DNA of 64,000 nucleotides from an uncultured Acidobacteriota bacterium. GTDB taxonomy: Bacteria; Acidobacteriota; Thermoanaerobaculia; Multivoradales; UBA5704. The stretch spans positions 1,280,001 through 1,344,000 of the forward strand of contig CAVYRF010000002.1 of NCBI GenBank assembly GCA_963770895.1. The letters run 5' to 3'. The position numbers were made by a program, and so were the translations under genes. Numbering within the stretch: position 1 is the stretch's first letter; every line of letters begins with the position of its first letter. The notes below the pieces were generated by a model. It had not been told where the DNA came from and did not search any database. It saw nothing but the letters and a program-made list of their open reading frames with translations. Shown here piece after piece: positions 8,437-40,053 of this stretch.

Positions 8437-8533
8437 CTGGTAGCCCGTCCTGCCTGAGCGCCAGGCGGCACCCGGCCGCCTGGCGCCTCGTGGCGCGGCA
8501 CCAGGTCCGGGTGTGCACTGAGTGGTCCGCACG

Positions 8534-11500
8534 ATGAAGGCACGCGACACCCAGGCGAATCTCCCCGGCCGCGCCGGTAGCGGACCGGTCGAGCATGCGC
8601 GCCGCGACATTGCCGTGGTCGGCATGGCTGGACGTTTCCCCGGCGCGGCCGACGTCCAGGAGCTGTGGCGCAACCTGATGGCGGGAGTGGAGGCGGTCCA
8701 GCCGCTCTCCCCGGCCGATCTGGAGCGCGCCGGCGTGGCGCCCGACCTGCTGTCGTCGGCCACCTACGTGCGCGCGGCGGCGCAGCTGGCAGGCTTGGAG
8801 CTGTTCGATGCCGCTTTCTTCGGCCTGACGCCGCGCGAAGCGGAAGCGACGGACCCGCAGCACCGCCTGCTGCTGGAGTGCACATGGGAAGCCCTGGAAA
8901 ACGCCGGCTACGCCCCCTCGTTGTGGCAGGGGCGCATCGGTCTCTTCGCCGGCACGTCGACCAACCGCTACTTTGAGCACGTCGAGGCGAGCGCCGCCGG
9001 CGCCGCGATGGGCGGCGTCGCGCTGTTCGGGCTCGACAAGGATTTTCTCACCACCCGCGTCTCCTATCGCCTGGGGCTGGAGGGGCCGAGCGTCACCGTG
9101 CAAACCGCCTGCTCGACCTCGCTGGTGGCGGTCCACCTGGCCTGCCAGTCGCTGCTCGCCGGCGACTGCGACCTGGCGCTGGCCGGCGGCGTCGCGCTGC
9201 GCAACCTGCGCGGCGAAGGCTACGTCTTCGAGCCCGGCGGCATCCTGTCGCCGGACGGGCACTGCCGCGCCTTCGACGCCGCTGCCGCCGGGACGGTGTC
9301 GGGCGACGGCATCGGCCTGGTGGCGCTCAGACGGCTCGACGACGCGCTGGCGGACGGCGACGCCATCGCCGCGGTGATCAAGGGTTCTGCGATCAACAAC
9401 GACGGCGCCGCCAAGGTCGGCTATACGGCGCCCGGGCTGCACGGCCAGGTGCGCGTCCTGCGCGATGCGCTGGCTGCCGCCGGCGTCGATCCCGCAACCG
9501 TTTCGTATGTCGAAGCGCACGGCACAGGCACACCGCTCGGCGATCCCATCGAGATGGCGGCGCTGGCCGAGGCCTACGGGCCGGCGGGCGACGGCGGCGA
9601 CGGTCGCGCGGGGGAGGAAGAAGAGGGCGGGGATGCCGGCGACGGTCGCCGCGGGGGTACGGGCAAGATCGCGGTGGGGTCGGTCAAGACCAACCTGGGG
9701 CACCTGGACGCCGCCGCGGGCATCGTCGGACTGATCAAGGTGGTGCTGGCGCTGCGCCACGCGGCGATCCCGCCCAGCCTCCACTTTACCCGCCTCAATC
9801 CGCGCATCCCCCAGGATGCCGCGGCCCGCTTCACCGTCGCCGCGACTGCCATCCAGCCCTGGGAAGGCGGCGGCGGCCGGCCGCGGCGCGCCGGCATCAG
9901 CTCGTTCGGCATCGGCGGCACCAATGCGCACGCGATCCTGGAGGAGGCGCCGCCGGCGGCCACGGGGGACGGCGGTCTCGCCGCCTGGCAGCTGCTGCAG
10001 GTCTCGGCGCGGACCGAATCGGCGCTGGTGCAGGCGGCCGCCAACCTGGCCGGCCACCTGGAAAACCACCCCGAGATCGGCCCCGACGAGCTGGCCGACA
10101 TCGCCTTCACGCTGCGCGTCGGCCGCCGCGCATTCGAGCATCGCCGCGCCGTGGTCTGCCGCGACGCCGCCGCGGCGCGGGCGGCGTTGCGCGGCGAGCC
10201 CGGCGGCGTGCCTGACCAGGCCGGCCGGCCTGGTGTGGCCGCCGGCTGGACGATGAGCGCCCGCGCCACCGGCCAGGCGGGCGTGGCGTTTTTGCTGCCC
10301 GGCCAGGGGGCGCAGCGGGCGGGGATGGCGGCGGGGCTCTACCGCACGCGGCCGGCATTTCGCGCCGAGCTGGACCGCGCGGCGGACCTGCTCGCCCCGC
10401 ACCTGGACGTCGACCTGCGCCAGCTGCTCTTGCCGCAACCGCAAGAGCCGGAGCAGGCGGCGCAGCTGCTGGCGCGCACGCGGTATACGCAGCCGGCGTT
10501 GTTCGCCGTCGAATACGCCCTGGCCCGGCTGTGGATCGGTTGGGGGGTGCAGCCGGCCGCCTTCCTGGGCCACAGCATCGGTGAGTGGGTGGCGGCCTGC
10601 CTGGCAGGCGTTTTCAGCCTGGAAGACGCCCTGGCCCTGGTGGCGCTGCGCGGGCGGCTGATCGACGAGCTGCCCCAGGGCGCGATGCTCGCCGTGCCGA
10701 TCGCGGCCGCCGAGCTCGAGCCGCTGCTCGGGGCCGACCTGGCGCTGGCGGCGGAGAACGCCGCCGACCGGTGCGTGGCGTCGGGACCGGCCGCGGCGAT
10801 CGCCGACCTGGAGCGGCGCCTGGCGGCGCACGGCATCGCCGGCCAGCGCCTGCGCACCTCGCATGCGTTCCATTCGCCCGCCCTGGAGCCGGCGGCAGCG
10901 CCGCTGGCGCGGGCGGTGAGCGCGGTGGCGCGCCGGCAACCCGCCATCCCGTTCGTGTCCAACCTGACCGGCACCTGGATCCTGGCCGACGAAGCCACCG
11001 ACCCGGCCTACTGGGGGCGCCAGATGCTCGCGCCGGTGCGCTTCGCCGCCGGGCTGCGCACCCTGGCCGCCAGCCTCCCCGACAACGTCCTGCTGGAGGT
11101 CGGGCCGGGCGAATCGCTCAGCCGCCTGGCGCGACGCGAGCTGCGGGAGCACGCCCAGCCGGTCGTCTCGACTCTTGCCGAGCAGCAGGGCGCGGACGAC
11201 GAGGAGCACCTGCTGCGCGCCGCCGCCCGGCTCTGGCTCGCCGGCGCGCCGCTCGATCCCCACGCCCTGACCGCCCCAGAGCGCCGGCGGCGGGTGGCGC
11301 TGCCGAGCTATCCGTTCGAGCGCCAACGCTACTGGCTGCCGCGTCCCAAACACGACCGGTGGGCGCCAGGGCCGGCGGCGGCCGCGCCCGCCCCTGCCGG
11401 CAGCCAACCGCCCCGGCAGGCGGACACGGCCTGGCAGGAGGGGGCCTGGCAGGGGAACGCCCCACCGGCGGCGGCGCGGCACGTGGACACTGCACCAGGA

Positions 11501-14500
11501 GCATCGCGGCAACCCGCAGCCTGGCCTGAAGCAGCACGGCATCCGGAAGTCGCGCCTGGAGCGACGCGGGATCCTGGCGCCGCGCCGATGGCGCGGCTTG
11601 ACCCCGCCGACTGGTTCTACCTGCCGTCGTGGCGGCGCTCCCTGCCGCCTCCTGCCGCCGGCAGCGCGGAGCTGCCGGCAGGCGCCTACCTGCTGTTCGG
11701 CGAGCGCGTCGCAGGACCCGGCGGCCCGTTCACCGCTGCCGTCGCGGCGCGCCTGCGCGCCGCCGGACGCCTGGTCACAGTGGCCTTCCCGGGCCCGGCG
11801 TTGGAACGCCTGGATGACGACACCTTTACGCTGCGGCCGGCCGGCGTCGAGGACCATGCAGCCCTGTGGGCGGCGCTCGCGGCGGCGGGGAGGAGCTGCG
11901 GCACGGTGCTCCACCTGTGGAACGCCACCGAGAGCGGCGAGCCGGCCGGAAGTCCCGGCGCGACGCTCGCCGCGAATCTGGATGAGGCGCTGGAGCGGGG
12001 GTTTTACAGCCTGATGGCGCTGGGCCAGGCGCTGGGCAGGGCGGCGAGCCGCGAACCGCTGGCGCTATGGGTGGTGTCGCGCCGCCTGCACGACGTGGCG
12101 GGAGGCGAACCGGTGGCGCCGGAGCGGGCGCCCCTGCTCGGCCCCTGCCGGGTGCTGCCGCTGGAGCTGCCGCACGTCGCCTGCCGCAGCCTCGACCTGC
12201 CACCGCGGACGACCGGGCTGTCTGGCGGCGACGGCCACGACCCCGGCGATCCCGGCGATGCCGGCGACGCCTGGAGCCAGGCGGACGCCGAGCTGCTGCT
12301 GGCCGAGGTGGCGGCGAGGCCGCACGACCAGGTGGTCGCCTACCGCGGCCCACAACGCTGGACGCAGGACTTCGAGCCGGTGCGGCTCGGCACCGCTGCC
12401 GGCGTCGCGCCGCCGCTGCGCCCGCGGGGCGTCTACCTGCTCACCGGCGGCCTGGGCGGCATCGGGCAGGCGCTGGCGCGCTGGCTGGCGCGGGCAGGGG
12501 CCGCCGGGCTGGTGCTTCTCGGCCGCTCCCAGCCGCCGCTGCACGGGCGCCACCTGCACCGCCTGCGCGAGCTGGAGGAAGAGCTGGAAGCGGCCGGCGC
12601 CCAGCTGCTGCTGGCGACCGCCGACGTCACCGACCGCGCCGCCCTGACCCGCGTGCGCGACCTGGTGCACGCCCGCTTCGGCGCTCTCCACGGCGTCGTC
12701 CACGCGGCCGGGGTGCCGGGCGGCGGCATCGTGCAGCTGCGGCGGCGGGACCAGGCGGCGGCGGTCCTGGCGCCCAAGGTCCAGGGAACGCTGGCCCTGG
12801 CCGAGGTCTTTCCGCCCGCAGAGCTGGACTTCTTCATTCTGTGCTCATCGCTCAACGCCGTGCTGGGCGCCGTCGGACAGGCCGACTACTGCGCCGCCAA
12901 CGCCTTTGTCGACGCCTTTGCCGCGGCGCGCTCGTTCCGTCGCCCGGCGCCGGGAGGCCCGGCCGGACGGGTGGTGTCGATCGCCTGGGACCGCTGGGAC
13001 CAGGCTGGGATGGCCGCCGAGGCGCTGTCGCCGTTCGAGCGCCGCTCGCCGGAGCTGCCGCCGCTGCCAGGCGAGGCGGTGACGCATCCGCTGCTCGACC
13101 GCCGGCTGCCGCAAGAGGCGGGCCGCCAGACCTTCGTCACCCGCCTGAGCGCCGCGCGCCATTGGATGCTGGACGAGCACCGCTTCTCCGGCACGCCGGT
13201 GCTGCCGGGGACCGCGTTGCTGGAGCTGGTACGCGCAGCCGCGATGTTCGCCGGCGCCCCTGCCGGCAACACCGGCAATAGCGGCAATAGCGGCAGCAGC
13301 GGCGGTATCGGCGGTATCGGCGACGGCGACAACGGCAGCACCAGCCCTCTGGCAGCCGGCGGCGCGGCCGGCATCGAGATCCGCAGCCTGAGCTTCGTGG
13401 CGCCGCTGGTTGTGGCCGACGCCGAGAGCCGCGACGTCTTCACCAGCCTCAGCCCCGCAGGCGACGGATGGCAGGTCCGTATCGCCAGCCGCGAGCCGGG
13501 AGCCGGCTGGCGAGAACACGCCGTGGGCGAGGTGGCGCCGCTCGCCGCGCCGCTGCCGGCCGCCGGCGAGACGGTGCCGGCGCTGGCCGATCTGCTCGCC
13601 GCGCTGCCCCTGGAGCCCTTTGCCGCCGGCACGCTGCCGGCGCCGCCACCGCCGGAGGCGCCGCCGGCGCACGCCGCGGACACGGCGAACGGCTCCGCGG
13701 AACATGCCGCCGGGGCCGGCCTCGGCCTGACCTTCGGCCCGCATTGGCAGGGGATCGCCGGCGCGGTGTCCATGGACGGCGATCAGCTGCTGGCGCGATT
13801 CGAGCTGCCGGCACAGTTTGCCGGCGAGCTGGACGCGCTGGCGCTGCACCCGGCGCTGCTCGACCTGGCCACAGGGTTCGTGGCCGCCGCCGCGGGCGGC
13901 GCGGCGGAACCCTACCTGCCCTTTTCGTACGCCGGCCTGCGCCAGGCGCGACCGCTGCCCGCCACCGTCTACAGCCACGCGCGCCGCCTGGCGGACGCGG
14001 CGCCGGCGTTCACCGGCGCCGCAAAGCCGGGCGCCCCCGCCACACGGAGCTACGCGGTGACCCTGTACGACGTCACAGGCCAGGTGCTGCTCACCATCGA
14101 CCAATACGTCTTCCGTCGCGTCGAACCCGGCGCCCCTCTCGCCGCACCGGTCGATCCGATCGATCGAGCCGGTGCAGCCCATCGAGCCGATCCAGCCGAT
14201 CGAGCCGATCGCCCCGGTACAACCGATAAGCCCGCTCAAGCCGATCAAGCTGATGCAGCCGATCGAACCGACCGAGCCGATCCGGCCGCCCGCACCGGCC
14301 TGAGCAACGCCGAAGGCGTGGACGTCTTCGCCCGCGTCTTGTCCCACATGCCCCTGCCGCAGGTGCTGGTGTCGACACGCGACCTGCGCGCCCGCGCCGC
14401 CGCCGCGGCGGCCGACACCGGCGAGCGCCTGCTGGCCCAGCTGGCCGAGCTCGGCCAGCTGGAGGCATCGGCAAACCCGGCGCCCACCGAGCGCCATCCT

Positions 14501-14917
14501 CGGCCGGCGCTGGGGGTGCCCTACGCCGCGCCGCGCGACGCGGCCGAACAGCGCCTGGCCGAGATCTGGCAGCAGCTCCTGGGGATCGACCAGATCGGCG
14601 TCGACGACGATTTCTTCGAGCTGGGAGGCGATTCCGTCCTGGGCCTGCGCGTCGCCGCGCTGGCGCGCGAGCGCGGCATCGTGCTGTCACCCGGCGAGCT
14701 GTTCGCCCACCCCACCATCGCCTCCCTGGCCCAGCGCCCGCCGGAGACGGCGCCGCCGCCCCCGCCAACCGAAGCGGCGTTGGCCCCAGCCGGCCAGCCC
14801 TCGATGCCCGCCCAGCCGGCGACCGTCAGCCCGGACGACTTCCCCGACGCCGACATCAGCGCACGCGACCTGGACACCTTGCTCGCCCAGCTGGGCGCCC
14901 CCCGCGACCCGCCGTAA
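8534..14917 (+). CDS. Single-module type I PKS: KS-AT-KR(with inserted DH)-ACP/PCP
   Basis: KS: TACSTSL, HGTGT, KTNLGHL. AT: GHSIG and HAFH (malonyl-type). KR: GGLGGIG, YCAAN. DH: HRFSGTPVLP, HPALLD. Carrier: LGGDSV. No thioesterase. Confidence 0.93.
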   Translation: MKARDTQANLPGRAGSGPVEHARRDIAVVGMAGRFPGAADVQELWRNLMAGVEAVQPLSPADLERAGVAPDLLSSATYVRAAAQLAGLELFDAAFFGLTPREAEATDPQHRLLLECTWEALENAGYAPSLWQGRIGLFAGTSTNRYFEHVEASAAGAAMGGVALFGLDKDFLTTRVSYRLGLEGPSVTVQTACSTSLVAVHLACQSLLAGDCDLALAGGVALRNLRGEGYVFEPGGILSPDGHCRAFDAAAAGTVSGDGIGLVALRRLDDALADGDAIAAVIKGSAINNDGAAKVGYTAPGLHGQVRVLRDALAAAGVDPATVSYVEAHGTGTPLGDPIEMAALAEAYGPAGDGGDGRAGEEEEGGDAGDGRRGGTGKIAVGSVKTNLGHLDAAAGIVGLIKVVLALRHAAIPPSLHFTRLNPRIPQDAAARFTVAATAIQPWEGGGGRPRRAGISSFGIGGTNAHAILEEAPPAATGDGGLAAWQLLQVSARTESALVQAAANLAGHLENHPEIGPDELADIAFTLRVGRRAFEHRRAVVCRDAAAARAALRGEPGGVPDQAGRPGVAAGWTMSARATGQAGVAFLLPGQGAQRAGMAAGLYRTRPAFRAELDRAADLLAPHLDVDLRQLLLPQPQEPEQAAQLLARTRYTQPALFAVEYALARLWIGWGVQPAAFLGHSIGEWVAACLAGVFSLEDALALVALRGRLIDELPQGAMLAVPIAAAELEPLLGADLALAAENAADRCVASGPAAAIADLERRLAAHGIAGQRLRTSHAFHSPALEPAAAPLARAVSAVARRQPAIPFVSNLTGTWILADEATDPAYWGRQMLAPVRFAAGLRTLAASLPDNVLLEVGPGESLSRLARRELREHAQPVVSTLAEQQGADDEEHLLRAAARLWLAGAPLDPHALTAPERRRRVALPSYPFERQRYWLPRPKHDRWAPGPAAAAPAPAGSQPPRQADTAWQEGAWQGNAPPAAARHVDTAPGASRQPAAWPEAARHPEVAPGATRDPGAAPMARLDPADWFYLPSWRRSLPPPAAGSAELPAGAYLLFGERVAGPGGPFTAAVAARLRAAGRLVTVAFPGPALERLDDDTFTLRPAGVEDHAALWAALAAAGRSCGTVLHLWNATESGEPAGSPGATLAANLDEALERGFYSLMALGQALGRAASREPLALWVVSRRLHDVAGGEPVAPERAPLLGPCRVLPLELPHVACRSLDLPPRTTGLSGGDGHDPGDPGDAGDAWSQADAELLLAEVAARPHDQVVAYRGPQRWTQDFEPVRLGTAAGVAPPLRPRGVYLLTGGLGGIGQALARWLARAGAAGLVLLGRSQPPLHGRHLHRLRELEEELEAAGAQLLLATADVTDRAALTRVRDLVHARFGALHGVVHAAGVPGGGIVQLRRRDQAAAVLAPKVQGTLALAEVFPPAELDFFILCSSLNAVLGAVGQADYCAANAFVDAFAAARSFRRPAPGGPAGRVVSIAWDRWDQAGMAAEALSPFERRSPELPPLPGEAVTHPLLDRRLPQEAGRQTFVTRLSAARHWMLDEHRFSGTPVLPGTALLELVRAAAMFAGAPAGNTGNSGNSGSSGGIGGIGDGDNGSTSPLAAGGAAGIEIRSLSFVAPLVVADAESRDVFTSLSPAGDGWQVRIASREPGAGWREHAVGEVAPLAAPLPAAGETVPALADLLAALPLEPFAAGTLPAPPPPEAPPAHAADTANGSAEHAAGAGLGLTFGPHWQGIAGAVSMDGDQLLARFELPAQFAGELDALALHPALLDLATGFVAAAAGGAAEPYLPFSYAGLRQARPLPATVYSHARRLADAAPAFTGAAKPGAPATRSYAVTLYDVTGQVLLTIDQYVFRRVEPGAPLAAPVDPIDRAGAAHRADPADRADRPGTTDKPAQADQADAADRTDRADPAARTGLSNAEGVDVFARVLSHMPLPQVLVSTRDLRARAAAAAADTGERLLAQLAELGQLEASANPAPTERHPRPALGVPYAAPRDAAEQRLAEIWQQLLGIDQIGVDDDFFELGGDSVLGLRVAALARERGIVLSPGELFAHPTIASLAQRPPETAPPPPPTEAALAPAGQPSMPAQPATVSPDDFPDADISARDLDTLLAQLGAPRDPP
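14150..14285 (+). repeat. Degenerate 9-bp tandem repeat (GCCGATCGA-like) encoding a PKS linker (ADRADP)
   Basis: Repeated ccgatcgag/ccgatccag/ccgatcaag units visible in the sequence. Confidence 0.6.
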
Positions 14918-17002: not shown

Positions 17003-17158
17003 ATGAGAAAGAACAACGCCAGAATCCACCTGAACCGCGAGACCCTGTGCGCCCTGACCGCCGACAAGAGGGAGCTGCGCGAGGCGGCGGCAGCCCTGGT
17101 GACAAAGCTCACCCCGTGCACCCTGAGCCACTGTTCCGGCGCCGCGAACTGCTGCTGA
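17003..17158 (+). CDS. Putative RiPP (lanthipeptide-like) precursor, 51 aa
   Basis: GGAGAAG RBS. MRKNNARIHLNRETLCAL leader and Cys/Ser/Thr-rich core VTKLTPCTLSHCSGAANCC. Confidence 0.65.
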   Translation: MRKNNARIHLNRETLCALTADKRELREAAAALVTKLTPCTLSHCSGAANCC

Positions 17159-22069: not shown

Positions 22070-22215
22070 GGGATGGCTCCTTGCTCGGCAAGTCCTCGGC
22101 GGGAGGGTCAGAACTTCCGCCGGGGGCGTCTGTCTGGTTCGGAGAGGTGCGTTCCTCCCCTTACAGGGAGGAACCTACAGCAGGTCTAGGCCGGCGGGAG
22201 CCGGCAACACACTAA

Positions 22216-23526
22216 GGAGTCGCGTCAAAATAACTTGACTATGTTATGAGATTGTGTTTTACTGCGGGACATGCAAGATCCCGCCTCGGCGGAGCAGATT
22301 GCAATGAAGTACCTTTCGCTTGCGCCGATGATGGATGAGCGGATGCGGCGCCAGTGGGCTGCTTCGGAAGCATGGGCCTATGGCTGGGGCGGAGTGCGAG
22401 CGGTGAGCGGGGCTATTGGCATGTCGCCGAATACGATCCGGCGGGGTTTGGCGGAGTTGCAGGACCGGCAGGCTCATCCTGAGGTGCCAGTGGCCTTGCG
22501 GGTTCGCCGGCCCGGTGGCGGGCGTAAGGCGCTGAGCGAGAATGACCCTGACCTGCTGGATGCGTTGGAGCACTTGGTCGACCCGGTGGCGCGCGGCGAC
22601 CCGGAATCCCCGTTGCGCTGGACCTGCAAGAGTACGACCCAATTGTCAGCAGCGTTGACGGGGCAGGGACACGCCTTGAGCCCGCGCAGCGTAGGGCGGC
22701 TGCTGAATGCGGCGGGCTACAGCCTACAGAGCAACCGCAAAACCTTGGAGGGTGCCGCGCATCCGGACCGCAACGCCCAGTTCGAGCACATCAGCCGCAC
22801 GGTCCAGGCGTTTCAGAAGCGGGGCCAACCGGTCATCTCGGTGGACACGAAGAAGAAGGAACTGGTCGGAGCGTTCAAGAATGTCGGACGTGAGTGGCGA
22901 CCGAAGGGAAATCCAGAGTCGGTCAAAATCTACGACTTCGTGGACCCCGAGTTGGGCAAAGCAATTCCCTATGGCGTGTATGACCTGAGCTCGAACCAGG
23001 GGTGGGTGAGCGTCGGCGTGGACCACGACACAGCCCGGTTCGCCGTCGAAGCGATCCGTCGTTGGTGGCGTAAGATGGGTTCCCCTCGCTACCCCAACGC
23101 CCGCGAGTTGCTGATCACCGCCGATGGCGGTGGCAGCAACGGCAGTCGCTGCCGGCTCTGGAAGGTTGCGCTGCAAGACTTGGCGAGCCAGCTGGGCCTG
23201 ACCATCAACGTCCGCCACTTCCCGCCGGGCACCAGCAAGTGGAACAAGATCGAGCATCGCATGTTCTGCCACATCACCGAAAACTGGCGGGGCAAACCGC
23301 TGATCAGTCACGACGTCATCATCAACCTAATCGCTGCCACGGTGACCAAGGCTGGACTGGAGATCCGTGCCGAACTCGACCGCGGTAGCTATCCAACCGG
23401 GGTTGCTGTAGCTGACGAAGAACTCGCGACCGTCAATCTGAAGCGCGCCAGCTTTCACGGCGAATGGAACTACGCCATTCGCCCCAAGCGTCGCAAAAGA
23501 TAGTCATGTTATTCTGGCGCGACTCC
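22216..23526 (+). mobile_element. ISAzo13-family insertion sequence, copy 1 (1311 bp)
   Basis: IRs GGAGTCGCGTCAAAATAAC / GTTATTCTGGCGCGACTCC, flanked by TAA (CTAAG context) on both sides. Confidence 0.92.
22271..23503 (+). CDS. ISAzo13-family DDE transposase
   Basis: GDPESPLRWTCKS, VISVDTKKKEL, ITADGGGSNG, PPGTSKWNKIEH and FHGEWNY motifs. Confidence 0.95.
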   Translation: MQDPASAEQIAMKYLSLAPMMDERMRRQWAASEAWAYGWGGVRAVSGAIGMSPNTIRRGLAELQDRQAHPEVPVALRVRRPGGGRKALSENDPDLLDALEHLVDPVARGDPESPLRWTCKSTTQLSAALTGQGHALSPRSVGRLLNAAGYSLQSNRKTLEGAAHPDRNAQFEHISRTVQAFQKRGQPVISVDTKKKELVGAFKNVGREWRPKGNPESVKIYDFVDPELGKAIPYGVYDLSSNQGWVSVGVDHDTARFAVEAIRRWWRKMGSPRYPNARELLITADGGGSNGSRCRLWKVALQDLASQLGLTINVRHFPPGTSKWNKIEHRMFCHITENWRGKPLISHDVIINLIAATVTKAGLEIRAELDRGSYPTGVAVADEELATVNLKRASFHGEWNYAIRPKRRKR

Positions 23527-23624
23527 TAAGGCCCCACTACCGGTGCCCCGCGTGGTTTGACAGCTCTGGGGGGATGTGGCAGGATGCAGCCTCGCCTTCG
23601 CGCTGCGGAGGCTGGTTGAACTGA

Positions 23625-32741: not shown

Positions 32742-32924
32742 CTGGCCGTGCGGCTGGGGTGCGCGGACACGGGACAGCACCGCCCAGGACGGCGGCCGCG
32801 CGAACAACGGCCATGCGATCTCGCTGGCGAGCGCCGGCGTTTCGCAGCGCCAACCCACGAACAGGACGGCGCCAAACCGGGGGTAGCGTCCCAAGATCGT
32901 GTTGGTGCTCATTACCAACACTAA

Positions 32925-34235
32925 GGAGTCGCGCCAGAATAACATGACTATCTTTTGCGACGCTTGGGGCGAATGGCGTAGTTCCATTCGCCGTGAAAGC
33001 TGGCGCGCTTCAGATTGACGGTCGCGAGTTCTTCGTCAGCTACAGCAACCCCGGTTGGATAGCTACCGCGGTCGAGTTCGGCACGGATCTCCAGTCCAGC
33101 CTTGGTCACCGTGGCAGCGATTAGGTTGATGATGACGTCGTGACTGATCAGCGGTTTGCCCCGCCAGTTTTCGGTGATGTGGCAGAACATGCGATGCTCG
33201 ATCTTGTTCCACTTGCTGGTGCCCGGCGGGAAGTGGCGGACGTTGATGGTCAGGCCCAGCTGGCTCGCCAAGTCTTGCAGCGCAACCTTCCAGAGCCGGC
33301 AGCGACTGCCGTTGCTGCCACCGCCATCGGCGGTGATCAGCAACTCGCGGGCGTTGGGGTAGCGAGGGGAACCCATCTTACGCCACCAACGACGGATCGC
33401 TTCGACGGCGAACCGGGCTGTGTCGTGGTCCACGCCGACGCTCACCCACCCCTGGTTCGAGCTCAGGTCATACACGCCATAGGGAATTGCTTTGCCCAAC
33501 TCGGGGTCCACGAAGTCGTAGATTTTGACCGACTCTGGATTTCCCTTCGGTCGCCACTCACGTCCGACATTCTTGAACGCTCCGACCAGTTCCTTCTTCT
33601 TCGTGTCCACCGAGATGACCGGTTGGCCCCGCTTCTGAAACGCCTGGACCGTGCGGCTGATGTGCTCGAACTGGGCGTTGCGGTCCGGATGCGCGGCACC
33701 CTCCAAGGTTTTGCGGTTGCTCTGTAGGCTGTAGCCCGCCGCATTCAGCAGCCGCCCTACGCTGCGCGGGCTCAAGGCGTGTCCCTGCCCCGTCAACGCT
33801 GCTGACAATTGGGTCGTACTCTTGCAGGTCCAGCGCAACGGGGATTCCGGGTCGCCGCGCGCCACCGGGTCGACCAAGTGCTCCAACGCATCCAGCAGGT
33901 CAGGGTCATTCTCGCTCAGCGCCTTACGCCCGCCACCGGGCCGGCGAACCCGCAAGGCCACTGGCACCTCAGGATGAGCCTGCCGGTCCTGCAACTCCGC
34001 CAAACCCCGCCGGATCGTATTCGGCGACATGCCAATAGCCCCGCTCACCGCTCGCACTCCGCCCCAGCCATAGGCCCATGCTTCCGAAGCAGCCCACTGG
34101 CGCCGCATCCGCTCATCCATCATCGGCGCAAGCGAAAGGTACTTCATTGCAATCTGCTCCGCCGAGGCGGGATCTTGCATGTCCCGCAGTAAAACACAAT
34201 CTCATAACCTAGTCAAGTTATTTTGACGCGACTCC
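32925..34235 (-). mobile_element. ISAzo13-family insertion sequence, copy 2 (1311 bp, inverted)
   Basis: Same IRs and identical transposase as copy 1, TAA flanks. One SNP noticed near IRL. Confidence 0.92.
32948..34180 (-). CDS. ISAzo13-family DDE transposase
   Basis: Protein identical to 22271-23503. Confidence 0.95.
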   Translation of the reverse strand: MQDPASAEQIAMKYLSLAPMMDERMRRQWAASEAWAYGWGGVRAVSGAIGMSPNTIRRGLAELQDRQAHPEVPVALRVRRPGGGRKALSENDPDLLDALEHLVDPVARGDPESPLRWTCKSTTQLSAALTGQGHALSPRSVGRLLNAAGYSLQSNRKTLEGAAHPDRNAQFEHISRTVQAFQKRGQPVISVDTKKKELVGAFKNVGREWRPKGNPESVKIYDFVDPELGKAIPYGVYDLSSNQGWVSVGVDHDTARFAVEAIRRWWRKMGSPRYPNARELLITADGGGSNGSRCRLWKVALQDLASQLGLTINVRHFPPGTSKWNKIEHRMFCHITENWRGKPLISHDVIINLIAATVTKAGLEIRAELDRGSYPTGVAVADEELATVNLKRASFHGEWNYAIRPKRRKR

Positions 34236-34293
34236 TAAGTAAGGACACCACCCGCGGCCGGGGTCGCTTGACGGCCTGGGGGCCCCCCGAGGC

Positions 34294-34452
34294 TCAGCAG
34301 CAGAAGCTGACGTTCGTGCCCGAGTGGCAGCGGTAGGTGGCGCCGCCGCCGATCTTGGGGAGCACCGCGGCTTCGAGCTCGCGCAGCGTCTCGCAGTGGA
34401 GGGTGAGCCTGGAGCCTTCCTGGGTCGTGGTGCGCTGCGCAGCTTTCTTCAT
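34294..34452 (-). CDS. Putative RiPP (lanthipeptide-like) precursor, 52 aa
   Basis: AGGAGAAG RBS. MKK...RLTLHCETLREL...IGGG leader and core ATYRCHSGTNVSFCC. Confidence 0.7.
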   Translation of the reverse strand: MKKAAQRTTTQEGSRLTLHCETLRELEAAVLPKIGGGATYRCHSGTNVSFCC

Positions 34453-34725
34453 GGTCTTCTCCTGTCTCCTGTAGTTTCGCCGCGGATCGTCGAGCGGTCG
34501 GCCCGCCGGGCCAACTCTGTCGGCCACCCTCAGTGAAAAGAGTGTGCACGGGATGGGCGGCGAGACAGTCTGGTGAAGGAGAGGAGCGGTCCTCCCTTTA
34601 TCGGAGAAACCTACCAGCAGATCAGGAGAGGCGCGAATAGGGCGGCAGCACAACACAGTCTTGGCACACTACCAACCCGGCGCGCTTTTCACCGCGGGGG
34701 CCTAACGCGCTATCCTTGAGGCGCC

Positions 34726-37338: not shown

Positions 37339-40053
37339 CTATTCGCCGCGCAGGGTGTTGAGGGGATCGACGGCGGCGGCCCTTTGGGCGGGGCCGGCGC
37401 TGGCGCCCAGGCCGACACAGACCAGGACCAGGGTGGCGGCGGCGATGGTGGGGGCGTCCATGGAGTGGACGCCGAAGAGCTGACTTTCCACCAACCGGCC
37501 GAGCAGCCACGAAGCGGGGAGGGCGATGGCGATGCCGCCCACGGCCAGCGCGGCCGCCTCGCGCAGGATGAGGCCCAGGGCGGCGCGGCGCGGCGCGCCC
37601 AGGGCCAGCCGGATGCCGATTTCGCGGGTGCGGCTGGCGGCCGAAAACGAGAGGACGCCGTACAGGCCGATCATCGCCAGCAGGGTCGCCAGCACGGCGA
37701 AGCCGCCGGCCAGCGTGGCCAGCATGCGCTCGTTGGCCAGCATGCGATCCTGCTGGTCGTCCAAGGTGCGCAGCGACAGCACGGCGAGCGCCGGATCGAT
37801 GCGCCGCACGGCGGCGCGGATCAACGGAAAGACCACCGCCCTAGCGCTGCGGGTGCGGACGTAGTAGGTGGCCTCGGAGGCCCTGCCCGCCCACAGCGGG
37901 AAGAACACCTCGGGCTCCGTTTCGCGCAGGTGGTTGTCGTGGAAGTCCCTGACCACGCCGACGATCTCGGTATCCGGGACCGCGTCGGGGCCGTCGCCGA
38001 TTCCCAGCCGGGCGCCGAGCGGTTCTTCCCCCTGAAAATACTGGCGCACAAATTCCTGGTTGACGATCGCCACGTCGGGCGAGCGCAGCTTGCCATCGGC
38101 GCCGTATAGCGCATCCTGATCCTTGAAGTCGCGGCCGCGCACCAGAGGCGCACCCAGGGTGGCGAAGAAGCCTGGGCTGACCGAGTTCATCGGCAGGTCC
38201 TCGGTGACGAAGCGGCGCCGGCCGGCGACGGTCAGCGGGTTGTTCCAGCCGCCGCCGGTCAGCATCTCCCAGCGGGTGGCCCCCGCCAGCTCCACTTCGG
38301 GCAGCGCCTGGATGGCCGCCAGCACCTGCTTTTCGACGGGCTTGGCGCGCGTTTGCTGGTAGCCGCTGCTCTGCGGTTCCAGGCGGAACATCACCAGGTT
38401 GGCGGTCGCGTAGCCGGGTCCCTGCAGGCGCAGCGCACCCAGCGTGCGCACGAAGAGACCGGCGCCGACGAGCAGGATGAGGGCAAGGGCAAACTGGCCG
38501 ACGACCAGCGCCCGGCGCAGGCCGAAGCCGCCGGCGACCGTCGACCAGCGCTGCCTGAGCGCCGACGCCGGCGAGACCGAGGTGGCATACAGGGCCGGCG
38601 CCGCACCCGAAAACAGCGCCGTCAGCACGGTGACCACCAGCGCGAACCCCAGCACGCGCAGATCCAGGTCCGGGCGCAGCGCCATGCTGACGGCGGCCCC
38701 GGTGCCGGTGCCGCCGCCGGCGGCCGGCAGGAAGGTGAGGATGCCGCGGCTGACCAGCGGCGCCAGCAGCAGGCCGGCGCCGCTGCCGAGCACGGCCAGC
38801 ACGCAACTTTCGATCAGCTGCTCGGCAAGGATGCGGCGGCGCCAGGCTCCCAGCGCCACGCGCGTCGCGATCTCCTGGCGGCGGGCCAGCGTCTTGGCGA
38901 GCGACAGGTTGGCAACGTTCAGGCAGGCCAGCAGCAGGATGAGCGCGGTCGCCGCCAGCAGGATCAGGATCGGCTGGCGCATCTGGCGCCGCAGGTCCGA
39001 GCGGCCTTGCGCCGCCGGCAGCAGGTCCAGGGTGGACGCCATGTAGGCCTTCAGCTGCGCCGGCGTCACCGGCGGCCATCCTTCGCGCCGCGTGTCCGCC
39101 GCCAGGTACGACTTGAACCACACCTGCAGGCGCGCCCGCGCCTGGTCCGGCGCGATGCCGGGCCGCAGGCGGCCGAAGACGTGCAGCCAGCGGGTGCGCC
39201 GGTCGAAGAGCCCGTCCCAGCTGGGAGTGGCCTGACGCTTCATCATGATCGGCAGCCACAGCGCCGGCGCGGCACCCCAATCGACGCCGTGGAAGCCCGG
39301 CGCGGCGACGCCGACGACAACCATGGGATGGCTGTTGACCAGCACGCGCCGGCCGGCAACCCGGGGATCGGCGCCCAGGCGGCTGCGCCAGTAGTCGTAG
39401 GACAGGACGACCACGGGTTGGCCGTCCGGCACCAGGTCGTCGCCGTCGTCGAGCAGGCGGCCCAGCGCCGGCCGCACGCCCAGGGTCTTGAAGTACGAGC
39501 CCGAAACCAGCTCGGCGCCGACCGGCTCGGCCTGGCGCCCGGTCGCCAGCTGCACCGGCGCCGGACAGTGCGCGAACATGTCCGAAAAGACGTCGTTCTG
39601 CTGCCGCAGCTCGCGGTAGAACTGGTGCGGGAACAGGTTGTCGGTGCCGACGCCGCCGCCCACAAAAGCGCCGTGCCAATCGAGCAGCACCAGCTGGTCG
39701 GGCCTGGCGACCGGCAGCGCGCGCAGCAGGGCCTGGTCGGCAAGCGAAAAAATCGCCGTGTTGAAGCCGATGCCCAGCGCCAGCGAAACCACGACGATCG
39801 CCGCCGCGACGGGCGCGCCCAGGATCTGCTTGCCGGCATGCCGGACGTCCCGCCGCAGGTGATCGAGCCACATCCAGCGCCCCGCTTCGTAGAAGCGCTC
39901 GCGGCTGCGCGTCACGTTGCCAAAGGCGCGGCGGGCGGCGGCCAGCGCCTGCCGCCGGCTCATCCCATCGGCGACCAGGCGGTCGGCTTCGATCTCGATG
40001 TGGGCCTCGATCTCGCGCTGAAAATCCTCATCGCTGCGCCGCCTTCCCATCAT
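37339..40053 (-). CDS. ADOP-type duplicated MacB/FtsX ABC permease (orphan)
   Basis: EIEAHIEIE...ARRAFGN prefix, SLALGIG.NTAIFS, and two FtsX halves (LLACLNVANL; GLYGVLSF...REIGIRLALGA). Confidence 0.9.
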   Translation of the reverse strand: MMGRRRSDEDFQREIEAHIEIEADRLVADGMSRRQALAAARRAFGNVTRSRERFYEAGRWMWLDHLRRDVRHAGKQILGAPVAAAIVVVSLALGIGFNTAIFSLADQALLRALPVARPDQLVLLDWHGAFVGGGVGTDNLFPHQFYRELRQQNDVFSDMFAHCPAPVQLATGRQAEPVGAELVSGSYFKTLGVRPALGRLLDDGDDLVPDGQPVVVLSYDYWRSRLGADPRVAGRRVLVNSHPMVVVGVAAPGFHGVDWGAAPALWLPIMMKRQATPSWDGLFDRRTRWLHVFGRLRPGIAPDQARARLQVWFKSYLAADTRREGWPPVTPAQLKAYMASTLDLLPAAQGRSDLRRQMRQPILILLAATALILLLACLNVANLSLAKTLARRQEIATRVALGAWRRRILAEQLIESCVLAVLGSGAGLLLAPLVSRGILTFLPAAGGGTGTGAAVSMALRPDLDLRVLGFALVVTVLTALFSGAAPALYATSVSPASALRQRWSTVAGGFGLRRALVVGQFALALILLVGAGLFVRTLGALRLQGPGYATANLVMFRLEPQSSGYQQTRAKPVEKQVLAAIQALPEVELAGATRWEMLTGGGWNNPLTVAGRRRFVTEDLPMNSVSPGFFATLGAPLVRGRDFKDQDALYGADGKLRSPDVAIVNQEFVRQYFQGEEPLGARLGIGDGPDAVPDTEIVGVVRDFHDNHLRETEPEVFFPLWAGRASEATYYVRTRSARAVVFPLIRAAVRRIDPALAVLSLRTLDDQQDRMLANERMLATLAGGFAVLATLLAMIGLYGVLSFSAASRTREIGIRLALGAPRRAALGLILREAAALAVGGIAIALPASWLLGRLVESQLFGVHSMDAPTIAAATLVLVCVGLGASAGPAQRAAAVDPLNTLRGE

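Follow-up and report, generated by a model that had tools for sequence, protein, structure and literature searches.

The Precursor 2 Gene and Its Genomic Surroundings

The window, i.e., the whole stretch of 64,000 nucleotides that was analyzed (G000:C2:1280001-1344000), belongs to the genome (8.16 Mb, three contigs designated C1 to C3, 70.7% G+C) of an uncultured Acidobacteriota bacterium, and its SucA protein shares no more than 64% identity with proteins from Terriglobia and other Acidobacteriota MAGs. The following features were located in it.

34294..34452 (-), including the stop codon: precursor 2, a 52-aa class I lanthipeptide-type precursor gene (ORF translation, family HMM, orthologues)
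34345..34452 (-): leader of precursor 2, residues 1-36, MKKAAQRTTTQEGSRLTLHCETLRELEAAVLPKIGG (family alignment; LxLxXx5L motif and GG(G) cleavage-type site)
34297..34344 (-): core of precursor 2, residues 37-52, GATYRCHSGTNVSFCC, ending S-F-C-C
34459..34470 (-): Shine-Dalgarno region AGGAGACAGGAG (GGAG at 34459-34462 and a second AGGAG at 34466-34470)
34242..34288 (-): predicted G+C-rich hairpin just 3' of the precursor 2 stop codon, a possible terminator without U tract (RNAfold)
32921..34240 (-): ISAzo13-family insertion sequence, 1320 nt (transposase 32951-34180; Pfam DDE_Tnp_ISAZ013, 2.9e-143)
22211-23530, inverted: twin of this insertion sequence (blastn, 99.8% identity)
37339..40053 (-): ADOP-family duplicated MacB/FtsX permease, 2.9 kb from precursor 2 (TIGR03434, 801.5 bits against a cut-off of 622; Pfam)
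17003..17158 (+): precursor 1, a 51-aa paralogue ending ...SGAANCC (leave-out HMM, E=3.4e-7)

The minus-strand reading frame at 34294..34452, which had been proposed from the letters alone, is present, and its re-translation yielded exactly the peptide given then, MKKAAQRTTTQEGSRLTLHCETLRELEAAVLPKIGGGATYRCHSGTNVSFCC (52 aa). The leader carries L-T-L-H-C-E-T-L-R-E-L followed by I-G-G-G, i.e., an LxLxKx5L-type motif with a Gly-Gly site; position 5 of the motif, K/R in LxLxKx5L, is Cys in precursor 2 and Arg in all three of its orthologues. The 16-residue core contains four Ser/Thr and three Cys residues, thus offering both dehydratable residues and Cys partners. The GGAG element is situated 7-10 nt upstream of the ATG codon, and a sigma-70 scan around the ORF returned no site. 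The 60 nt 3' of the stop codon were predicted to fold with -25.8 kcal/mol (RNAfold), and the 70 nt 3' of the 97 family members described below were more stable than those 3' of random long ORFs (mean -33.0 versus -27.5), which is weak evidence for a terminator because the GC content is slightly higher 3' of the precursors. Searches of Pfam and NCBIfam with precursor 2 alone gave no match, even at E≤10, and none of the 600 matches from a pattern search with the peptide alone was confirmed as a related locus.

Precursor 1 (MRKNNARIHLNRETLCALTADKRELREAAAALVTKLTPCTLSHCSGAANCC), the sister peptide of the sequence-only reading, was found 17 kb from precursor 2 on the opposite strand, with a similar length and a Cys-Cys end. 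No RiPP enzyme was detected among the 23 window ORFs scanned (7.4-46.4 kb) or in the three genes flanking precursor 2, and precursor 2 is separated by 250 kb from the closest LanC, LanB, or C39 gene and is therefore not adjacent to LanB and LanC. The earlier description of both neighborhoods as rich in mobile elements and free of enzymes was thus borne out for the scanned ORFs and for precursor 2, whose stop codon is 54 bp from the end of the downstream insertion sequence, but about 2 kb upstream of precursor 1 lies a type I PKS gene (2131 aa; window 8522-14914 (+)). The insertion sequence occurs in four copies in the genome (blastn), and precursor 2 is the only family member near one of them, so the association was regarded as incidental. 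The two inverted copies in the window bracket 9.4 kb encoding an amino-acid permease, an MFS transporter, and an ABC uptake system, in a composite-transposon-like layout. Elsewhere in the genome, four NRPS gene ends have precursors within 86-557 bp (C1:1824503-1830617, C1:2007277-2013433, C2:1965507-1971725, and C2:2137428-2143479); RiPP precursors are thus found at the borders of thiotemplate clusters (four NRPS genes and one type I PKS).

A Dispersed Family with a Conserved Leader and Variable Cores

The sequence-only reading had predicted that a genome-wide leader HMM would uncover many dispersed peptides with a conserved leader and a variable core, together with few synthetases. A loose regular expression for the leader gave 110 six-frame matches, 58 of which were used to build a leader HMM, and all 119,748 stop-to-stop ORF tails of the genome were searched with it at a threshold of E<0.01. 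One of the resulting 98 matches was dropped (C2_+_4029365, without Met and without core), leaving 97 members on all three replicons (C1, 32; C2, 64; C3, 1). Together with the single complete LanB described below, this is the predicted pattern. Reversed ORF tails, used as a control, gave no match at this threshold (best E, 0.2), and an independent profile search with the family alignment gave 95 matches in the genome. The family HMM recognized precursor 2 with E=4e-9. The proposed likeness of precursors 1 and 2 also exceeded chance, as a leave-out HMM built from 56 seeds, with both window peptides excluded, found them with E=3.4e-7 and 8.4e-6, respectively, against none in the reversed control. 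The outcome named beforehand as contrary to a library, that only these two peptides exist, did not occur: besides the 97 members, relatives also carry the family, and LanB, LanC, and C39 genes are present.

The members are 42-75 aa long (median 54), with the consensus MKK...KLxLxRETLxxL...AGG followed by a variable Cys/Thr/Ser-rich core. The conserved leader comprises about 29 residues, with LxLx[R/K]ETLRxL and a GG or AG end; GG or AG lies 4-30 residues past the E-T motif in 85 members. The pairwise identity of the leaders was 0.46 (0.24 after shuffling), and that of the cores was 0.33 (0.30 after shuffling), barely above composition. The cores consist of 18.6% Cys, 14.5% Thr, and 8.4% Ser. 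At least two Cys residues were present in 93 of the 97 cores (Cys count, 2-10), and Ser plus Thr equaled or exceeded Cys in 95. Terminal Cys-Cys, previously taken as a family hallmark, turned out to be a subfamily trait found in only four members, although 40 end in Cys; an [S/T]-x-C-C end occurs in three. Likewise, the C-(x)-S-G segment, pointed out earlier as common to precursors 1 and 2, was seen in only six of the 97 cores.

Several features indicate that the family members are real genes. GGAG, GAGG, or AGGA was found at -18 to -4 in 88 of the 97, compared with 9.8% of random 20-mers, and the mean GC3 was 0.83. A paralogue pair ending in T-G-C-C (C2:3876774 and C2:4747628), in which the homologous unit is the ORF with short flanks, showed a low dN/dS of 0.058/0.271 = 0.21 (core, 0.033/0.323). 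No shared promoter was detected upstream of the 97 genes; a sigma-54-like pattern preceded two of them, as compared with 1-1.5% of random segments, and there was no enriched 7-mer of note. When the 728 ORFs situated up to 6 kb from the 97 loci were clustered, the largest groups were histidine kinases and response regulators, Vgb-lyase-like propellers, ADOP permeases, NRPS, and ABC proteins, and no recurrent modifying enzyme was found among them. A homologous-protein search with the family alignment gave nine matches at E≤1e-8, none of them annotated beyond “hypothetical protein” or “natural product precursor”.

ADOP permeases, of which the genome has 56 of at least 640 aa, showed a modest enrichment beside family precursors. 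One lay within 300 bp of six of the 97 precursors (random mean, 2.3; six were reached in 2.5% of 2000 permutations) and within 3 kb of 14 (random mean, 5.8; 0.15% of permutations). ADOP-type permeases may act as exporter or immunity partners of the precursors.

Orthologues and Turnover of Precursor 2

Two near-orthologues of precursor 2, with 88% and 87% identity, were found on short metagenome or NCBI contigs; both keep every Cys, and their Ser/Thr positions are either kept or swapped between Ser and Thr. G005 is the one congener of nine in which an orthologue was found (63% identity, with TY-CHSG in common), so that three orthologues are available, and the Cys positions are kept in all three. 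The nucleotide homology to G005 covers only window positions 34291-34512, i.e., the ORF and 60 nt upstream, and the dN/dS was 0.284/0.183 = 1.55 over 52 codons, a small sample with biased GC3, giving no sign of purifying selection. The G005 orthologue is located 124 bp from a divergent ADOP-like permease (locus L133, 1-1377 (-)). The same locus also holds an 81-aa ORF next to the orthologue (L133, 1798-2043 (+)); its product has a signal peptide and a tail rich in Cys, and it is not related to the family. Judged from these comparisons, precursor repertoires turn over fast between close relatives.

Precursor 2, and perhaps many of the orphans, might accordingly be decaying or neutral by-products of cassette duplication that no longer serve as functional substrates, an explanation that we consider rather unlikely. 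It would be in keeping with the dN/dS of 1.55, with homology limited to the ORF and 60 nt upstream, with an orthologue in just one of nine congeners, and with the replacement of the motif K/R by Cys and the insertion sequence 54 bp downstream. However, precursor 2 retains an intact frame and a strong Shine-Dalgarno sequence, the near-orthologues (87-88%) keep all Cys residues and the Ser/Thr positions, and, across the family, the Shine-Dalgarno sequence is kept in 88 of 97 members, with a dN/dS of 0.21 in the paralogue pair. Moreover, fast turnover and a variable core are equally expected of a diversifying library.

Leader Type and Modification Enzymes in the Genome

The family motif LxLx(R/K)ETLRxL fits the class I pattern LxLxKx5L/GG. 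In Walker et al. 2020 (PMC7268733), Bacteroidetes class I LanAs with an LxLxKx5L leader are described, many of them Gly-Gly-ended and with a C39 protease in the cluster. The mining in that study covered seven genes on each side of LanC; LanC-centered mining of this kind, with few genes around, is therefore blind to dispersed precursors, and distant ones were missed, as its authors note. The corresponding NCBIfam model NF038153 (lant_leader_L1a, “class I lanthipeptide”) matched 33 of 60 members at E≤1 (best E, 1.2e-6), and its whole-genome scan gave three loci over the curated cut-off (22 bits) and five at E≤0.01. Precursor 2 falls below this curated cut-off and is counted as a member because the genome's own leader profile, with precursor 2 left out, finds it. 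No match to a Nif11/NHLP leader was obtained for precursor 2 with Pfam or NCBIfam or for the 60 members with NCBIfam.

A genome search yielded 14 matches to LanC-like domains in 13 genes, two to the LanB N-terminal domain, and two to the LanB elimination domain. Only one LanB is complete:

C2:5180053-5183583, convergent with a 536-aa LanC gene: complete LanB (Lant_dehydr_N + C; Pfam), 1177 aa

The LanB-LanC pair is flanked by chorismate synthase, RNase II, and M14 peptidase genes, and no family precursor lies within 16 kb of it. Counting the LanB-adjacent copy, there are eight stand-alone LanC genes; Pfam further assigned two LanM (DUF4135+LanC), one RamC_N-kinase-LanC, and one kinase-LanC protein. 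A LanC, LanB, or C39 gene was found within 5 kb of only seven of the 97 precursors and within 20 kb of 14. Taken as sequence evidence, the 97 dispersed precursors and the one complete LanB support a prochlorosin-like architecture of this genome. The notion of a single promiscuous enzyme holds for the dehydratase at most, given the single complete LanB but eight stand-alone LanC genes; because the genome also encodes two LanM, a class III-like, and a class IV-like enzyme, “one enzyme” is not established.

Nine C39 matches were obtained, three of which are C39-ABC exporters, one beside LanC and HlyD genes; the best exporter was typed by NCBIfam as an NHLP-family exporter. The remaining six were rejected as exporters, being RHS-repeat proteins.

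Five family precursors abut stand-alone LanC genes, and two of these five have Cys-free cores, so LanC adjacency in this genome is not simply canonical. The two Cys-free cores (at C1:1579906-1581279 and C2:2707932-2709301, ...PVSHMTNTVFVHPP and ...TMVHLNNSRVIHD) follow an ETLLPL leader variant; external thiol addition is one idea for the role of LanC beside them. Two further enzyme loci were observed. At C2:3320488-3323265, an operon comprises a precursor (72 aa, about 10 Cys) and two consecutive LanC genes without LanB, with an ADOP permease facing it and a phage-type integrase and a group II intron reverse transcriptase adjoining; it looks like a mobile island because its G+C content is below that of the rest of the genome and these integrase and reverse transcriptase genes lie beside it. 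At C2:4500084-4512000, a 925-aa protein with only the LanB N-terminal domain has no adjoining LanC, and its four large flanking ORFs (1291, 485, 658, and 422 aa) have no Pfam family at 1e-6.

A LanD/AviCys decarboxylase was not established, since among three flavoprotein matches one is CoaBC, one is UbiX, and the third is below the cut-offs. This third protein, a 192-aa stand-alone HFCD-type flavoprotein (C1:1764400-1764975), scored 30.6 bits against CypD (cut-off 215) and lies below all curated cut-offs; judged from its sequence, it is a candidate peptide-Cys decarboxylase for the 40 Cys-ended precursors.

We also considered whether another class of maturase (radical SAM/SPASM, MNIO, or YcaO) acts on the family, as for the TIGR04149 GG-leader rSAM RiPPs of Bacteroidota, which resemble it in the leader KLxLxKET...GG and in Cys-rich cores. 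TIGR04149 weakly matched three of 60 members (best E, 0.02), and the genome has five SPASM, two MNIO, and one YcaO match. By coordinates, however, each of these eight genes is separated by more than 4 kb from every family precursor (the nearest being at about 5.0 and 6.6 kb), no rSAM/SPASM gene adjoins any member, and the relatives' LanBC clusters examined contain no SPASM, MNIO, or YcaO gene, the linkage being to LanBC instead. This alternative is accordingly regarded as highly improbable.

Linkage and Co-Occurrence of Precursors and LanB in Relatives

Forty relatives of the same order were searched by profile, and the family counts obtained are lower bounds. The family was found in at least 24 of the 40, with at least 69 copies at most; it was present in all nine congeners (from at least 1 to at least 69 copies each), in at least 20 of the 24 genomes of the same taxonomic family, and in at least 4 of the 16 genomes outside that family. 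Among 150 further genomes sampled evenly across the phylum, at least 5, including G182, carried it, with at least 1-6 matches each. Of the 24 precursor-positive relatives, 21 have a LanB N-terminal domain at E≤1e-100, as compared with 1 of the 16 negatives, kinship being ignored in this comparison; among the three positive exceptions, one genome is only 84% complete, another has a LanB that is read in two frames, and in the third LanB is fragmented. The lower-bound precursor counts correlated with the number of LanC matches (Spearman 0.83) and of LanB N-terminal matches (0.50), values that overstate the signal because related genomes are not independent.

Direct linkage was observed in two relatives. 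In G027, contig C11 shows the gene order ABC, precursor, LanC, LanB, and six tandem family precursors adjoin LanC and LanB on contig C7. In the congener G002, the order on contig C91 is chorismate synthase, precursor, RNase II, LanC, LanB, with the precursor ending in SSCC, and this locus is syntenic with the precursor-less LanB locus of the present genome, whose LanB is 64% identical to that of G002 and 49% identical, over the full length, to that of G027 C11. Seven of the eight LanBC-cluster precursors of relatives have an [S/T]-x-C-C end, as does precursor 2, and the best non-self match of the precursor 2 core was a G027 cluster precursor (...LRSFCC).

These data bear on two alternatives to modification by LanB and LanC. 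The first, already raised in the sequence-only reading, is that the peptides remain unmodified, i.e., that they are secreted, Cys-rich peptides with a GG leader (resembling bacteriocins, signals, or metal-binding peptides) that are cut by C39, exported, and disulfide-folded. The 90 of 97 members without LanC, LanB, or C39 within 5 kb, the three C39-ABC exporters, the 40 members ending in Cys, and the 2-10 Cys residues per core speak for it. It is weakened by the occurrence of the same leader directly beside LanC and LanB in G027 and G002, by the NF038153 matches of 33 of 60 members, and by the tracking of the strong LanB type by the family (21 of 24 versus 1 of 16 relatives); in addition, Ser/Thr is co-enriched with Cys, and orthologues swap Ser and Thr while keeping Cys. 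We therefore judge it unlikely.

The second is a true ProcM-type arrangement, with the orphans being substrates of the two LanM or the class III/IV-like enzymes. The genome does encode two DUF4135+LanC and two kinase-LanC proteins, and one family precursor is located 3.5 kb from LanM1, separated from it by an ABC transporter, but LanM2 has its own 82-aa precursor with a leader unrelated to the family. In addition, the 100%-complete genome G018 has at least 38 precursors, one LanB N-terminal match, and three LanC matches, and it is without a LanM-sized match because all three sit in 467-502 aa frames; similarly, in G010, G019, and G022 (at least 27-44 precursors), the best LanC match is in 436-530 aa frames. 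The leader type, moreover, is that described for class I in Walker et al. 2020 (PMC7268733). A role of LanM-type enzymes for the orphans thus seems very unlikely.

Proposed Modification in Trans and Relation to Known Systems

Modification by LanB and LanC remains the reading that we prefer, and precursor 2 probably encodes a genuine class I lanthipeptide-type precursor (LanA) that is modified in trans by distant enzymes. In the proposed pathway, the orphan genes would be expressed, and the conserved leader would be recognized in trans by the genome's single complete LanB (C2:5180053-5183583), which would convert Ser/Thr of the variable core into dehydro-residues. One or more LanC cyclases (the LanB-adjacent one and the seven other stand-alone copies) would then add Cys thiols to form thioether rings, and a C39-peptidase ABC exporter would cut after the double glycine and export the peptide. 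For precursor 2, a ring T/S2-C5 and an intertwined C-terminal pair T9/S12-C14/C15 are plausible. Its core ends in [S/T]-x-x-S-x-C-C, like the C-terminus of epidermin/gallidermin, and in epidermin-type peptides the last two rings, which are intertwined, have this spacing; a difference is that no LanD-type decarboxylase is established in the present genome.

The pairing of precursor and enzyme was also modeled. Complex prediction with LanB residues 1-800 and precursor 2 gave a score of 0.40 (best control, 0.00), with an agreement between runs of at least 38% of contacts and a partner pLDDT of at least 40. Of 80 solved complexes, 58 attained the mark so passed, as did 2 of 110 mismatches; at scores of 0.60 or below, these numbers were 7 of 80 and both mismatches. 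The prediction lends weak support to a precursor-enzyme pairing, and the pass may reflect memory, because a like complex, that of NisB with the NisA leader, has been solved.

The leader type and enzyme class are known already. Family I 17 of Walker et al. 2020 (PMC7268733; including pinensin; NF038153) is similar in leader motif, Gly-Gly end, Ser/Thr/Cys-rich cores, and the combination of LanB, LanC, and C39, and the same leader occurs beside LanC and LanB in relatives of the present genome. The cases described there are from Bacteroidetes and are cluster-encoded within seven genes of LanC. Here, in contrast, an acidobacterium has about 97 copies, 90 of them more than 5 kb from LanC, LanB, or C39, and a LanB without an adjoining precursor. 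In the accessible portion of a 2026 coral-microbiome paper, class II and class III acidobacterial lanthipeptide clusters are characterized, and the present family is not among them.

The prochlorosins/ProcM and SyncA/SyncM of marine picocyanobacteria share with the present family a conserved leader, a hypervariable core, many distant precursors, few enzymes, and a rapid turnover of repertoires among close relatives. Those systems, however, belong to class II, with one bifunctional LanM and Nif11/NHLP leaders, and are found in Cyanobacteria, whereas the present one, in Acidobacteriota, has a class I leader, a separate tRNA-dependent dehydratase, and several cyclases. The family thus has the features of a prochlorosin-type library (many dispersed precursors with a conserved leader and hypervariable core) and lacks the Nif11/NHLP leader and single LanM. 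The earlier proposal of a prochlorosin-like library was, accordingly, right about the many dispersed precursors with a conserved leader and needs amending as to the class, which is class I (LanB/LanC, LxLxKx5L-GG leader) and not ProcM-like. Judged from sequence, the best reading, which we favor with moderate confidence, is a class I counterpart of the prochlorosin library, with the precursors modified in trans. No description of a class I equivalent of the one-enzyme, many-substrate lanthipeptide library was found in the literature searched, subscription journals and supplements being outside its scope; within the same scope, the scale of about 97 copies, their dispersal, the conserved LanB locus without precursor, and the acidobacterial lineage were likewise not found in print.

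At the level of the lineage, a more far-reaching and tentative reading, to which we assign a likelihood just short of even, is that a combinatorial library of class I lanthipeptides is maintained by a family-level lineage of Acidobacteriota; one conserved, housekeeping-embedded LanB and a few LanCs would serve all cassettes in trans. Tens to about 100 LanA mini-cassettes per genome, each consisting of the ORF and about 60 nt upstream, would duplicate, disperse to sites beside ordinary genes, PKS/NRPS, and ADOP permeases, and undergo turnover from one species to the next.

Class II one-enzyme, many-substrate systems (ProcM and SyncM) are now engineering platforms. If the lineage-level reading is true, this LanB would be the first naturally highly substrate-tolerant class I dehydratase. 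Should the single LanB handle about 100 different cores, it would provide a promiscuous tRNA-dependent dehydratase ready for use and would reveal that a soil phylum that is difficult to culture has a large peptide repertoire so far hidden, and the independent origin of library-style RiPP evolution in two enzyme classes would become testable.
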